The notes: generated by a model not told the origin, from the sequence alone. DNA of 64,000 nucleotides from Chrysomallon squamiferum (GCA_012295275.1 CM022666.1:310001-374000), one strand, 5' to 3'; shown: positions 828 to 57,493, numbered from the stretch's first letter. Numbers and translations: made by a program.

Positions 828-876
828 ATGTCAAATTGTATTTTCTTTTTATTATGCACTGCAGCTTGGCCAGTAG
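828..876 (+). CDS. Gene A signal-peptide exon (MSNCIFFLLCTAAWPV)
   Basis: acaATG start, hydrophobic core, 49 nt, phase-1 donor G|gtaagt; 43/49 nt identical to 19249-19297. Confidence 0.85.
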
Positions 877-3800
877 GTAAGTCAATCGCTATAACAGTAA
901 TAGAATAACAAAAGAATAAATTAATAAAATAAACACTATAGAGATGACAAACGACTTCACCGTTTGCTAACAACAAAAATAAATCCGTACTTTTACAGTT
1001 TCTTGTAAAATAAATTTTTAAAGCAAACTTTCTGAAGAATGAATAATGCAAAATAAATTAAGTATAAATAAATAAAAAGATTATATATATATATATAATA
1101 ATAATAATAATAATAATAATAATAATAATTATAATTATAATTATAATTATTATTATTTTTATTATTATTATTATTATTATATTATTATTATTATTATTAT
1201 TATAAAAGAACCAAAACTTGACAATAAATAACAACCGGTATTAAGCTTTTCACTAAACATAATAACAAGAATAAATTAGATAAAATAAATAAATAAATAA
1301 ATAAATAATTCTAAATCAGTATATTGCGTTTTACATTTAGTTCTACGAATGTGTTTTCCAGAAGGATTATATCTGCCACCAATACTAATTACCTTGCTTT
1401 CGTGGCTAAAATGTGCCTGAAGTATATGTAAAAAAGTTCAGCACGTTCTTGTAAATGACTGTTGCTCCCAAATAAATTAAAATAACGTGATAAAACTTTG
1501 GGTGATGAAAAGAACATCATTTGTTACGTCGCACGCGGCTGTGTGTGCTGCACGTGCTCACGCGGTGCGCTCGTGCTGTCACAGAAGCGCGTGCACTACA
1601 GATGTGTTGAAATCTTATTTTGATGCAGTGTTCAATTTGATCCAAAAACAAAAGGAATAATTTATCCTGTTAGGATGGGTCGCTGTCCAGGCTTAACGGA
1701 AAATCAGCGTCGTGAAGCTGTGGGACGGGTTAACGCCAGCCAACGCGTACACGACGTCGTTCAGTACAACGTGCACACCAGAGTGCGCACGTGCGACATG
1801 GATCTCGTTCTGGTAGACCACGATTAACTACACCAAGGGATGGTGGTATTTTGTGACGTCACAGGTTCGAAAGTGCTCCACGTTTAGCTTGCACTGTGCA
1901 GCAAACCACAGGCTCTAGAATTCACACTCAAACTGTGCGTACCCGACTCCATGCTGCTGGGTTACAAACACGTCGCCCTGTTGTAGATGTTCCCCTCACA
2001 GCGCGTCACATTCAGCAACGTCTGAAAATAAAATGTTCTCTCATTTTGTTATTTACTACCTTATATATAAGTATATAGGGAATAAATGGATATCAGATTT
2101 ATCCTGCAAATCGATTTTGGACCGCAATAAGACAAAGCTGATGTTTTGAGACAGACAGTAACCAGTTATTTCCTTTTTTAATGAAAACTGTTTTTAAAAT
2201 AGTATTTTTAGATCAAAACCAACAAGTAAACCTTTAAATAATTTATCGATGTTGTTAACTGTTCTCCAACTTAGTAGAAACTCCTTTATTTATGTGTGCG
2301 CACGTGTACTGTTGATCTTCAAAAATTGCAAAACTGCCTCAGTGTGACTCTTGGTATCTAATGTTGTACCTATTTGTGTGTATGTGTTTGTATATGTGTA
2401 TGTGATGTGTTTGTGTATGTGCATGTGTTTGTGTATCTGTATGTGTTTTTGTGTGTGTATGTGTGTATATGTGTGTGTGTGTGTATAAAACAATTATTAT
2501 AGTTGTTGTTTCTTTATAGTTAAAGCAGTTATGCTGACAGTAAAACCAAATCCTGTTTACGAAGGAGAGCACGTGACAATCAGATGTAGTATTGAGGACG
2601 CCAGCCGAATCGACCAAATCTTTTCTCTGATAATAAGAAGAAAGGACATCGAGGAAGCTGAGTACGTCAACTTCGGGGTAGCCGCCTCGGGGGAAAACGA
2701 CGGCAACGCCTTTTTCTACGACATAAAGTACACCTCTGTGGCAAACGTGACGGGACGACTGTACAGCGGCGACGCGAAAGAAGAAAGCTTTGTACAAATA
2801 GACATGTCGTCTTTCAGTAGCATTGATGAAGGATATTATCTGTGCGTACTCGATTATCTTAACTATGACTTCGAAAAGCAGACGACAATTGCTAGAATGA
2901 AAATTATTGTTAAAAGTAAGCAAAAGCTTTAGTGTAACCATAATTAATTATAAAAAGAAGAAGAAAAAAAAAAGAGAAAGAAAGAAAGAAAAACAGAAAA
3001 AAGAAAGTCTGATTCATGAATATTTTTGGTTAAAAATACGATACGCATATTTTCTGAAACTAACTAACTAAATATTTATTTATTTATATTTGTATTTAAT
3101 ATTTTCATTTATTCAATATGAACACATATCGAATTTCTGTTAATTTTAATGTTTGTATCTTTTCTTAAATTTACAGGTGCTACATTACCGAAGAAAAAAA
3201 TTGTAGGTTTGTACCGTTTTCAATTTTTATTTAGCTAACAATCGCGTTTGATGATAGAAAATTAAATATAAATTAATGTTTTGTTATTAAAACACACTTG
3301 TTTTTTTGTGTTAGCTATTTGTTAGAACACACAGTCAAATTCAGTATTTGAAATGGAATATGGTTCAACCAGAATTCACGGCATACTAAATATATGGAAT
3401 TTATTCATTTTATTTTATTATTATAATAATTGTTTTAAATTTTATTTTATTTTTTTATTTTATTTTATTTTATTTATATATTTATTTATTTTATTCATTT
3501 TGTTTTTGTTGTTGTTCCTGGTTTCATGGGAACAGCTGGTTGAAAATGGCGGTCTGTTTTATATATTGTAGTAGTTATTTATAGTTGATGAGCACTGATG
3601 TTCAAACATTAACATGCCGTTCTGTAGCACACTGTAGGAACCAATTTAAATAAGGAAATAAACAAAGAGGGTAATAAATGGAGGTAAAAGATAAACAGTT
3701 ACGTTCTGTTATTGTATATGTATCAGCTAAATATGTTTTGCATGCTTAAGTTAGCAATTTTTTAATGCCATTTGCATACTGGGCGTTCCTATATTCTCCA

Positions 3801-57100: not shown

Positions 57101-57493
57101 TTAACATTGTTACGGTCACAATGTTCGTAACTAAAATCAGTAGCATAAATTCACGACTATCAACTCAAAACAAAAAGGCATAGGTTCTCTGACATGGTAG
57201 CTACAAGCACATAGAAAAATATGTATTTAAGGAAACTGAACTTTTTAAAATTTAAATGCAAAAACTAAGATTTTAAACTAATTTATTTTAATTTTTTAAA
57301 TTGTTTTAATGTTTTTTATTTATTTATTTTTTTATGAAAATGCCTACGGACGGTATGATACAGTAATGACAGCTTTATCGTTCTTTGCGATAATCAAGTA
57401 CAATAGACATTCATTTGTGAAAACAAGCATCAATTCAAACTTACCAGTCAACTGAAATTCAAAATACAACAAAAGATAAACCCAGTCGGACAT
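41345..57493 (-). CDS. Gene C: inverted, more divergent paralog, signal + 5 Ig-like + TM + micro-exon tail (~837 aa)
   Basis: Minus-strand exon chain sums to 2514 nt, open; same blueprint as A and B; convergent with gene B. Confidence 0.8.
43030..43335. repeat. 15-bp minisatellite (AACAGAATAGTGTTA) with periodic AAAGTCGAGATT interruption (higher-order unit)
   Basis: Directly visible. Confidence 0.9.
45942..46064 (-). CDS. Gene C transmembrane exon
   Basis: ESDVH-LIMVVLSFGACICLTMFFA-SRHRNVIKKQHRK; tcacag acceptor, weaker A|gtactt donor; not shown in the ORF track in this frame. Confidence 0.75.
47158..47187 (-). CDS. Gene C linker micro-exon 5 (TEGQAGHDDT)
   Basis: ttgtag / gtctgt, 30 nt. 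Confidence 0.7.
47317..47525. repeat. 21-bp minisatellite (CAGATACCGGATGTTTCGTGT)
   Basis: Directly visible, degenerate. Confidence 0.9.
47635..48024 (-). CDS. Gene C Ig-like domain 5 exon
   Basis: ccacag / A|gtaagt, 390 nt; LTVMC ... DTGLYTC. Confidence 0.9.
48753..48782 (-). CDS. Gene C linker micro-exon 4 (PYLGTHRVIR)
   Basis: tttaag / gtttgt, 30 nt. Confidence 0.7.
49298..49693 (-). CDS. Gene C Ig-like domain 4 exon
   Basis: gtttag / C|gtacgt, 396 nt; LSVTC ... DSGAYTC. Confidence 0.9.
50069..50095 (-). CDS. Gene C linker micro-exon 3 (REVKKKTYF)
   Basis: ttacag / gtatgt, 27 nt, phase 1/1. Confidence 0.7.
50913..51287 (-). CDS. Gene C Ig-like domain 3 exon (shortened)
   Basis: gtttag / C|gtaagt, 375 nt; VTVRC ... 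LEYSC. Confidence 0.88.
52158..52187 (-). CDS. Gene C linker micro-exon 2 (ELNLPQPSLQ)
   Basis: ttacag / gtatta, 30 nt. Confidence 0.75.
52721..53153. repeat. About 48-bp minisatellite (AAACTGCCAATGAACAAAGGGCAAATACATACACACTTGTGTGAAATT), about 9 copies
   Basis: Directly visible. Confidence 0.95.
53460..53855 (-). CDS. Gene C Ig-like domain 2 exon
   Basis: ttacag / G|gtaagt, 396 nt; LEVRC ... DAGTYNC. Confidence 0.9.
54788..54817 (-). CDS. Gene C linker micro-exon 1 (SSFIQQSVST)
   Basis: tcacag / gtttgt, 30 nt; contains an internal competing GTAAGT. Confidence 0.65.
55752..56141 (-). CDS. Gene C Ig-like domain 1 exon
   Basis: ttgtag acceptor (in-frame alternative start 56147), T|gtaagt donor; VMIRC ... 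DSGVYIC. Confidence 0.9.
57445..57493 (-). CDS. Gene C signal-peptide exon (MSDWVYLLLYFEFQLT)
   Basis: acaATG, 49 nt, G|gtaagt, same length and phase as A/B; an in-frame ATG lies 6 nt upstream. Confidence 0.78.

Follow-up and report, generated by a model that had tools for sequence, protein, structure and literature searches.

The gastropod VIgLs (FREP, CREP and GREP) are secreted proteins which combine one or two IgSF domains with a fibrinogen or lectin domain and are encoded by clustered multigene families. The IgSF domains of FREPs are V-like and form part of immune proteins, according to the accessible part of the source (PMC7588048). A long V domain lacking the core Trp is found in mollusc V-Ig proteins, including those of Gigantopelta aegis (XP_041376960, XP_041373743, XP_041372686), Patella, Lottia, Haliotis and bivalves, many of which cross the membrane once and carry their domains in tandem. 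Here the V domain is mostly paired with a C2-like domain, carries an EF-loop cysteine and occurs in near-identical tandem repeats. The oyster receptor CgIgR (five Ig domains plus a membrane segment) carries an ITAM, recruits Syk and binds bacteria as well as LPS (PMC6994640). The Hydractinia Alr complex is a cluster of divergent IgSF genes for single-pass proteins in which each domain has its own exon; as described in the available part of PMC9546547, Alr domains lack the B–F cysteines, V domains are combined with I-set and Fn3-like modules, ITAM or ITIM motifs are frequent and Alr2 is highly polymorphic. A micro-exon hinge between Ig domains is known from LAR-type phosphatases, where the mini-exon meB is a single alternative exon of four amino acids that switches ligands (PMC12598525). 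Among vertebrate multi-V proteins (pIgR and EWI/IGSF3), pIgR displays five tandem V domains and a membrane segment. Paired receptors of the LILR, SIRP, CEACAM and CD300 type are defined by an ITIM-bearing tail or a charged membrane residue.

The window analysed here, a stretch of 64,000 nucleotides of Chrysomallon squamiferum (GCA_012295275.1 CM022666.1:310001-374000), harbors two tandem genes, A (828-18521) and B (19249-38599) on the + strand, and an inverted gene C (57493-41345, - strand), at the places where the first-pass annotation had located three five-Ig genes with closing frames. The models of A, B and C comprise 23, 25 and 23 exons with open frames of 838, 840 and 839 aa, respectively, and their internal introns are GT-AG throughout. 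The predicted products are single-pass surface proteins of about 840 aa with five V-type Ig domains on hinges of 9–11 residues. All three genes follow the same plan: a 49-nt signal exon, five repeats of an Ig exon (375–399 nt) and a hinge exon (27–33 nt) and, 3' of the fifth hinge, a membrane exon followed by tail exons of 13–22 nt in pairs. In outline, the level at which both were compared, this arrangement resembles that of CgIgR, from the signal peptide over the five Ig domains to the membrane segment and the tail. In contrast to the single meB exon, every hinge is encoded by an exon of 9–11 aa. Each ectodomain exon can be skipped without frame shift. The parts of gene B are listed below.

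19249..19297, + strand: exon 1, signal peptide, 49 nt (an X1 contig splices this exon to domain 1)
21660..22052, + strand: V domain 1, 393 nt (model and RNA)
22376..22405, + strand: hinge 1, 30 nt (present in RNA contigs, joints in X1 and X2)
23779..24177, + strand: V domain 2, 399 nt (model and RNA)
25004..25033, + strand: hinge 2, 30 nt (loose end after 24177 in X1 and X2)
26159..26554, + strand: V domain 3, 396 nt
27366..27395, + strand: hinge 3, 30 nt
27967..28365, + strand: V domain 4, 399 nt
28766..28798, + strand: hinge 4, 33 nt
29349..29741, + strand: V domain 5, 393 nt
30030..30059, + strand: hinge 5, 30 nt
30579..30695, + strand: membrane exon, 117 nt, short segment rich in Gly/Ala, then basic residues
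31996..38267, + strand: tail, twelve micro-exons in six pairs, splicing predicted (31996-32011, 32396-412, 32900-15, 33289-308, 34051-66, 34540-59, 35043-64, 35468-87, 36096-111, 37413-32, 37697-715, 38248-67)
38598..38620, + strand: probable last exon, whose junction creates the stop codon in the full model; the exact C-terminus is uncertain

The 5' part of gene B is spliced as modelled. RNA contigs of X1 and X2 contain the junctions 22052>22376 and 22405>23779 with GT..AG borders, thereby joining V1, hinge and V2; loose contig ends connect the signal exon to Ig1 (X1) and Ig2 to hinge 2 (X1 and X2). Skipping of hinge 1 was not seen in the two RNA runs covering it. A 22-nt candidate exon at 23706-23727 was dropped, since it shifts the frame and is skipped by the RNA contigs. 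Genes A and C and all tails stay predicted models, with the following parts.

828..876, + strand: A exon 1, signal peptide, 49 nt, ending in phase 1 (82% alike to B exon 1 including flanks)
2520..2915, + strand: A V domain 1, 396 nt
3177..3206, + strand: A hinge 1, 30 nt
4035..4424, + strand: A V domain 2, 390 nt (396 with acceptor 4029)
7287..7316, + strand: A hinge 2, 30 nt
7899..8294, + strand: A V domain 3, 396 nt
8811..8840, + strand: A hinge 3, 30 nt
9638..10036, + strand: A V domain 4, 399 nt
10374..10406, + strand: A hinge 4, 33 nt
11802..12194, + strand: A V domain 5, 393 nt
12433..12462, + strand: A hinge 5, 30 nt
12944..13072, + strand: A membrane exon, 129 nt (hydropathy 3.4 over 19 aa; juxtamembrane residues basic)
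13516..18180, + strand: A tail, ten micro-exons in five pairs, splicing predicted (13516-31, 13843-59, 14341-56, 14661-80, 15026-41, 15345-64, 15653-68, 16184-203, 17822-37, 18161-80)
18487..18521, + strand: A last coding exon through the stop codon
57445..57493, - strand: C exon 1, signal peptide, 49 nt
55752..56147, - strand: C V domain 1, 396 nt (390 with acceptor 56141)
54788..54817, - strand: C hinge 1, 30 nt
53460..53855, - strand: C V domain 2, 396 nt (V-set E 1.1e-5)
52158..52187, - strand: C hinge 2, 30 nt
50913..51287, - strand: C V domain 3, 375 nt
50069..50095, - strand: C hinge 3, 27 nt
49298..49693, - strand: C V domain 4, 396 nt (V-set E 5.7e-6)
48753..48782, - strand: C hinge 4, 30 nt
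47635..48024, - strand: C V domain 5, 390 nt
47158..47187, - strand: C hinge 5, 30 nt
45942..46064, - strand: C membrane exon, 123 nt (hydropathy 2.5)
41904..45120, - strand: C tail, ten micro-exons in five pairs, splicing predicted (45120-108, 44855-36, 44469-51, 44099-80, 43582-64, 42840-21, 42522-04, 42229-10, 42012-41994, and 41920-04 with a weak donor)
41345..41406, - strand: C last coding exon, exact C-terminus uncertain

Ig exon sizes are 396/390/396/399/393 nt in A, 393/399/396/399/393 nt in B and 396/396/375/396/390 nt in C, and agree with the near-invariant sizes reported at first pass once the alternative acceptors 4029 (A2) and 56141 (C1) are considered. The early estimate that two thirds of the exons measure 33 nt or less likewise holds: these account for 48 of 71 exons, one of them the coding stub of the last exon of B, and for 47 of 68 if the last exons are excluded. 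When the whole window was scanned with a profile in six frames, Ig exons numbered exactly 15. Hinge-like exon candidates follow the Ig exon in 15/15 intervals on the sense strand, compared to 1/15 on the antisense strand and a mean of 2.2/15 (maximum 6) in 100 dinucleotide-model sequences; the donor filter was chosen when the exons were already known, which renders the sense count partly circular. Tail-like candidates number 17/16/9 in sense, 0/0/0 in antisense and about 0.5 in the controls. The observed/expected ratio of CpG is about 1.0 in the coding regions, and CpG retention in molluscs usually marks unmethylated, non-housekeeping genes. An Rfam search gave no match.

In all 15 domains the B- and F-strand cysteines are invariant, while the Trp of the C-strand core is replaced by Leu, Ile, Met or Val (0/15). 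V domains lacking this Trp are known elsewhere, and its absence marks the domains as atypical V domains and does not exclude them from the V-set. The fold was modelled for A1 only: the prediction (pLDDT 95.7) displays V-set strands and a V-type fold including strand C'. The structures most similar to it are antibody V domains (Z 12.9, r.m.s.d. 2.9, 111 aligned), myelin P0, nectins and CD200R (Z 12.9–12.4), with nectin-1/-3 and Necl-2/CRTAM likewise among the top matches. Pfam V-set is the top family for nine of the 15 domains, only two of the 15 reach the curated cut-off, and an ESM Atlas search returned generic V-set clusters only. The homodimer prediction for A1 scored 0.00 and counts neither for nor against binding.

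The 15-domain profile matches G. aegis P0002 (E 1e-70, three domains), P0009, P0019 and P0020 as well as proteins of Patella, Haliotis, Lottia, Nucella and bivalves, nearly all labelled uncharacterised or hypothetical; the profile probability to P0019 is 99%. Identity to other gastropods is 25–30% at best, and sequence search revealed no close relative among 1.84 billion representatives, in line with the genes not being orthologues of a conserved IgCAM. A Biomphalaria FREP, P0106, which contains Fibrinogen_C and clusters with BgMFREP22.3, is matched at E 1.1e-7, a distant match with 61 aligned columns and a probability of 91%. Judged by sequence, the window domains are part of a V-type lineage which is widespread in molluscs and extends to the IgSF domains of FREPs. 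Like the VIgL genes, A, B and C are clustered; in contrast to the secreted VIgLs they encode five domains and a membrane anchor, and no fibrinogen or lectin domain was found, domain 5 being followed by a membrane exon and an acidic tail in 3/3 genes.

Compared by protein alone, the V+C2 relatives differ from the window genes, which possess five old, divergent V domains but no C2 domain and use micro-exons both for the hinges and for a repetitive tail. Only an exon of 27–33 nt lies between the V exons of the models. The EF-loop cysteine is missing in all 15 window domains, whereas it is present in 22/22 motif matches with a C2-like domain after them and in 3/14 without one there (all three in P0094), the C2 partner having been assigned by eye. 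The top PDB sequence match is pIgR (E 1.7e-5), covering only 28 generic positions of the E–F strands, so that the pIgR-like shape is most likely convergent; invertebrates lack an Ig ligand for a receptor of this type.

Further searches yielded little. Word-index protein searches with domain profiles, which are weak negatives, gave one generic perlecan-like match, one Babylonia protein and none of 4251 candidates at domain length; a metagenome scan with P0002 produced 101 pattern matches, none of which was confirmed. A cephalopod origin was rejected: the terms for a squid V-Ig cluster are absent from the main text of PMC9068888, and the named matches are from gastropods and bivalves. The literature searched, which covers few subscription journals, yielded no account of a mollusc family with five V domains and micro-exons. 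The proposal of a spliced, multi-gene membrane IgSF family is supported, no name for it was found, and its presentation as a candidate undescribed family needs amendment insofar as the family is not isolated.

The domains are very divergent: A1 and B1 share 42% identity (about 40% had been estimated by eye), and the 105 domain pairs span 16–42%. With a dS of 1.3–1.8 and a dN/dS of 0.3–0.5, A and B are old duplicates, and positive selection is not indicated by a ratio under 1; the original label 'fast-diverging' is not borne out. A careful tree of 29 domains (all 15 of the window and 14 relatives) supports only A1+B1, A4+B4 and A3+B3+C3, and a quick 79-domain tree is mostly without resolution, the FREP link included. 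Window domains interleave with or adjoin G. aegis and ENA domains, and the data neither establish nor reject a single clade of the window domains (p-AU 0.20). Identity between A and B is lowest in BC (14%), CC' (17%), FG and G (24% each) and 30–49% in the other segments. Loop divergence is a generic feature of old Ig paralogues; as the BC, CC' and FG loops differ most, the paralogues likely bind different ligands.

An alternative is that A and C are partly decayed duplicates, silent or wrongly modelled, with B as the sole functional gene. The only A-like RNA piece in X1, a contig of depth 2.5, contains intron sequence, and broken micro-exon copies occur in genes A and C. Against decay, both frames are open over 23 exons with canonical splice sites and were kept despite the high dS between A and B, with a dN/dS of 0.3–0.5, which renders this explanation extremely improbable. 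In the tail of A, an additional duplicated pair consists of a 16-nt exon (~16619-34) that lacks an acceptor and leaves an orphan 20-nt exon (17386-405). In C, a 17-nt exon (41543-41527) was dropped because it creates a stop.

Two domain-1 variants from outside the window are present in RNA contigs of X1 and X2 and in DNA contigs of X4; the depth of one of them in X4, about four times that of B, is a hint only. Since X1, X2 and X4 each contain B and both extra variants, paralogues fit better than alleles, and at least two further expressed paralogues exist beyond A, B and C. Between the window and X1/X4, domains 1–2 of B differ at 3/792 coding bases (0.4%; two silent, one R>K), as judged from contigs, which lose rare variants, of at most four samples from two studies. 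This is low for a pathogen-driven receptor and counts against a capture function.

The same data make it improbable that the locus serves Alr-like allorecognition or gamete recognition through a polymorphic domain 1 binding matching alleles. The locus shares with the Alr complex the clustering of divergent membrane IgSF genes and the single-domain exons, and in principle the additional domain-1 variants might represent divergent alleles. Yet B is nearly constant between the few samples compared, the co-occurrence of all variants favors paralogues, and the Alr hallmarks (cysteine-less domains, I-set, Fn3-like spacer, ITAM/ITIM) are absent, so that the Hydractinia analogy drawn at first pass is not supported. 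To our knowledge, solitary snails show no colony-type fusion.

The modelled tails contain neither ITAM nor ITIM (A and C by pattern search, B by reading of the translation); tyrosines number one in A, two isolated ones in B and one in C. A charged residue is found in 0/3 modelled membrane segments. Together these absences speak against the proposed analogy with LILR, SIRP and CEACAM and, despite the outline shared with CgIgR, make signalling immune receptors acting via Syk or SHP very unlikely, although an alternative tail exon or a paralogue beyond the window could carry a motif. The C-terminus of C presumably forms a class I PDZ-type motif if micro-exon 41920-04 is used, which is uncertain.

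Tails without signalling motif fit an adhesion role equally well. Endogenous adhesion or membrane-organising proteins of the nectin, P0 or EWI type, binding self or a host partner and tethered to the cortex via the basic tail, possibly in secreting epithelia, represent a possible, if somewhat unlikely, explanation. It would agree with the presence of P0, nectin-1/-3 and Necl-2/CRTAM among the top structural matches of A1, with the little polymorphism in B, and with Ig-domain proteins in scaly-foot snail sclerite proteomes, as reported in the available part of PMC11871041. On the other hand, a conserved orthologue is absent even among other gastropods, and at least five divergent paralogues with a still-changing tail are unusual in core adhesion genes.

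With a probability of about one half, we consider A, B and C a V-only, pIgR-shaped offshoot of the mollusc V-Ig proteins, whose products likely capture microbial or other outside ligands without tyrosine signalling. In this history, the V domain of the common V+C2 surface proteins would have shed its C2 partner together with the associated EF-loop cysteine, and the cassette of V exon and hinge exon would have multiplied to five. Whole-gene duplication may have followed, A and B corresponding domain for domain, and the tail was probably extended by duplication of a unit of two micro-exons (11–14 aa), a pattern still recognisable in A and B. Five different V domains on flexible hinges could act as a multi-site tether, with the basic juxtamembrane patch as an anchor to membrane or cortex and the acidic tail repeats as spacer or docking sites. 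The reading frame survives the omission of any ectodomain exon, which would permit isoforms of reduced domain number or with tighter hinges; none was seen. A precedent for capture is CgIgR with its binding of bacteria and LPS. Another is the 'CEACAM5' orthogroup OG0000013, which in G. aegis, C. squamiferum, Bathymodiolus and Lottia comprises 130, 101, 103 and 59 genes, respectively (PMC7895826); four genes with this label are high in the symbiont organ of G. aegis. The window genes are only candidate members of this orthogroup, and its large size in the non-symbiotic Lottia weakens the precedent.

A further-reaching proposal is that a symbiont-bearing vent snail uses a germline multi-V repertoire and an in-frame exon-skipping splice code to recognise and hold bacteria. 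Paralogues would supply different V domains, skipping of domains or hinges would tune reach and specificity, and the paired tail micro-exons would tune the inner side. Overall, we regard the proposal as quite doubtful. If true, molluscs would possess, in addition to FREPs and Dscam, a new means of diversifying receptors.

Prokaryote-style or standard gene callers would likely break A, B and C into single exons. That gene predictors miss such genes, as anticipated at first pass, is supported by the relatives, which are stored as lone ORFs of 120–150 aa. Work on mollusc immunity has focused on secreted VIgLs, and membrane proteins with the same type of V domain are mostly unannotated. The locus supplies exact gene models of the V-only branch, RNA-backed for 5' B, with which ligand and expression tests become possible. 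The gene plan further illustrates clearly how proteins grow by cassettes of micro-exons, with symmetric hinge exons outside the cell and obligatory pairs inside, and recent duplications and decay of micro-exons are visible in it. Should the host be chemosymbiotic and its bacteria be bound by the proteins, these would become candidate factors of partner choice in an animal-microbe symbiosis.

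The window is eukaryotic and AT-rich (~30% GC), with abundant microsatellites, and its stop-to-stop ORF list contains 15 Ig-like frames of 130–210 aa each. A profile scan of all six window frames recovered exactly the same 15, the next match having an E-value of 0.09. Gene models built from splice-site scans and coordinates comprise:

Gene A, forward strand (+): 23 exons, 838 aa, model
Gene B, forward strand (+): 25 exons, 840 aa, model
Gene C, reverse strand (−): 23 exons, 839 aa, model

The locus is real and well built. As claimed in the first-pass annotation, three five-Ig genes share a micro-exon blueprint, with complete frames; all introns of the models are GT-AG. 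A signal exon of 49 nt is followed by five pairs of a V exon (375–399 nt) and a hinge exon (27–33 nt), a membrane exon of 117–129 nt, 10–12 tail exons of 13–22 nt and a last exon. The earlier estimate that about two thirds of the exons are 33 nt or shorter is borne out by 47 of the 68 non-terminal exons. Among the controls for micro-exon candidates, the sense-strand count is partly circular, while antisense and simulated counts are free of circularity. The signature GTxTGT is found in 13/15 hinge donors and GTAAGT in 10/15 Ig exon donors; such exon-class-specific signatures point to a single (V + hinge) cassette, which would have been multiplied repeatedly. Removing any one V, hinge or membrane exon keeps the frame (11/11 per gene); removing any one of the 32 tail exons does not, since tail exons act as pairs of 33–42 nt.

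Several repeats accompany the genes. The intron after A domain 2 carries a minisatellite (26-bp unit, 71 copies, 5190–7040), and further minisatellites lie at 36700–37103, 43030–43337 and 52721–53154. A short frame in A intron 1 (1675–1824, +), which gave no match in a Pfam search, is reminiscent of the start of a Tc1-type transposase. CpG is strongly depleted across 58001–64000 (o/e 0.46, 0.17 and 0.17, versus ~1 in coding exons), a pattern that suggests a housekeeping gene next to the locus with its body methylated; a candidate exon end is located in this region near 63691 (+).

Part of B is present in three RNA runs from one study and in one run of unrecorded kind behaving as DNA (X4), which together represent at most four samples and whose contigs show presence only. 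Among contigs aligned to 21635–24200, one of 1420 nt from RNA run X1 leads from the signal exon through domain 1, hinge 1 and domain 2 to hinge 2. The two splice joints on either side of hinge 1 recur in contigs of a second RNA run, X2, and no contig joint in this interval skips hinge 1. These RNA contigs show the 5′ part of B to be spliced as modelled. Other contigs align with the start of domain 1 only, and gene A letters were found in one X4 contig. X1 contains 0.32 of the sampled words of 23500–30800, an interval whose exons account for 0.21 of all words; this fits expression of B domains 2–5 and the membrane exon without proving it. Across the 792 coding bases of B domains 1–2, three differences separate X1 from the window, of which two are silent and one is R>K; X4 shares all three and X2 the two in domain 2. 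A loose contig end suggests one additional change in the signal exon in X1.

Two domain-1 variants match neither A nor B; X1 and X2 show them spliced to a signal-like exon, and X4 carries both as well. Because both variants occur alongside B in each of X1, X2 and X4, paralogues are a likelier explanation than alleles, which puts the number of genes at five or more. The depth of one variant in X4 (152 versus 38.5 for B) weakly hints at several gene copies.

The tails record copying of different ages. A's last tail unit was recently copied together with its introns (88–93% DNA identity among 15545–18228); the middle copy lacks one acceptor, and its orphan partner exon would truncate the tail if used. 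The tail unit duplication of B is older (69% DNA identity over 975 nt). In the tail of C, a decayed copy of a 19-nt exon (41543–41525, −) has an altered acceptor and donor. Moreover, an exact 73-bp tandem duplication, also present in X4 (depth 75 versus 38), spans the acceptor of B domain 2 (23654–23798, +), possibly a snapshot of micro-exon origin. The 22-nt candidate exon it yields (23706–23727, canonical AG and GT) would shift the frame and is skipped in RNA contigs. RNA contigs also skip another 22-nt candidate with AG..GT borders, which lies at 22163–22184 (+), in the interval that separates B domain 1 from hinge 1.

The proposed structural check of the Ig domains returned a V-type sandwich for A1 (AlphaFold2 on the 15-domain alignment, pLDDT 95.7), matched to nanobodies by Foldseek and, in a wide structural search, to antibody V domains, P0, nectins and CD200R at Z 12.9–12.4. 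Two cysteines are invariant in 15/15 domains, and the C-strand Trp is absent from all 15. A third, D-strand cysteine is seen in 9/15 domains (A1 alignment position ~80), a position at which the aligned relatives usually show Ala or another small residue, and A3 and B3 have another beside the F-strand cysteine. These extra cysteines could be free thiols or inter-chain links.

Pairwise identity among the 15 domains is 16–42%. A careful tree supports only A1+B1 (99/95), A4+B4 (100/98) and A3+B3+C3 (98/90), and neither shows nor rejects a single clade of window domains (p-AU 0.20). Four A–B domain pairs have dS of 1.3–1.8 and dN/dS of 0.30–0.53, the fifth being saturated; A and B are old duplicates under relaxed purifying selection, and they differ most in the BC, CC′ and FG loops and along the G strand.

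The 15-domain profile, scored against 1.84 billion representatives, gave 393 matches at E ≤0.001. Among the best 150 of these, which were examined, many are generic multi-Ig proteins aligned over short stretches. Matches over most of a domain include proteins from the vent snail Gigantopelta aegis, namely P0002, whose three V domains are near-identical, P0009, in which two V domains are combined with a stalk and a membrane segment, and P0019 and P0020 (V + C2-like), as well as proteins of Patella, Lottia, Haliotis, Nucella, Batillaria and bivalves, single-exon ORFs and fish multi-V proteins. A FREP of Biomphalaria, P0106, is also among the matches. Named proteins with the closest match are those of G. 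aegis, other gastropods and bivalves (~25–30% identity per domain), a level that points to a gastropod source but not to a given species. Names were checked for 30 of the best 150, and nearly all the named ones read 'uncharacterised' or 'hypothetical'. The contigs that carry four of the five G. aegis matches share one length, 53.4 Mb. V + C2-like surface proteins form a large mollusc family, most of it unannotated (P0007, P0019, P0038, P0048, P0068, P0115); the tails of P0038, P0115 and a further relative, P0042, are tyrosine-rich, unlike those of A, B and C.

In relatives, an EF-loop cysteine is found in 22/22 cases with a C2-like domain next and in 3/14 without, and P0007 has both states within one protein. 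As this cysteine tracks the C2-like partner and is absent from 15/15 window domains, we infer that it forms a V–C2 disulphide in relatives, and that the V-only design of A, B and C is old and complete rather than a product of models missing exons.

Comparison with described systems rests on the accessible parts of the published accounts of Alr (PMC9546547), VIgL/FREP definitions and polymorphic membrane clusters (PMC7588048, PMC10875847, PMC9334734, PMC10903818), CgIgR (PMC6994640 and supplement), mini-exons (PMC12598525) and other literature (PMC13428168, PMC11871041, PMC7142155). A, B and C miss at least one defining feature each of Alr, VIgL, CgIgR and paired receptors, and the literature search found no description of a five-V micro-exon architecture. 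The Alr and paired-receptor analogies drawn in the first-pass annotation are not supported, and evidence speaks against allorecognition, an unlikely role. Signalling through tyrosine motifs is more improbable still, as the modelled tails, a basic patch followed by acidic repeats, lack ITAM and ITIM motifs, and none of the membrane segments contains a charged residue. A, B and C may belong to the expanded Ig families of vent snails described, in the accessible part of that report, under the label 'CEACAM5' (PMC7895826).

With a probability of roughly one half, A, B and C are best read as a branch of the mollusc V-Ig surface proteins that is built from micro-exons, has V domains only, is pIgR-shaped and likely captures outside ligands; plain adhesion is the main rival, a possible but less probable role. 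To find divergent Ig membrane genes in clusters is of limited surprise in a mollusc, where such genes are expected; the interest lies in the exon plan of A, B and C and in the ready gene models.
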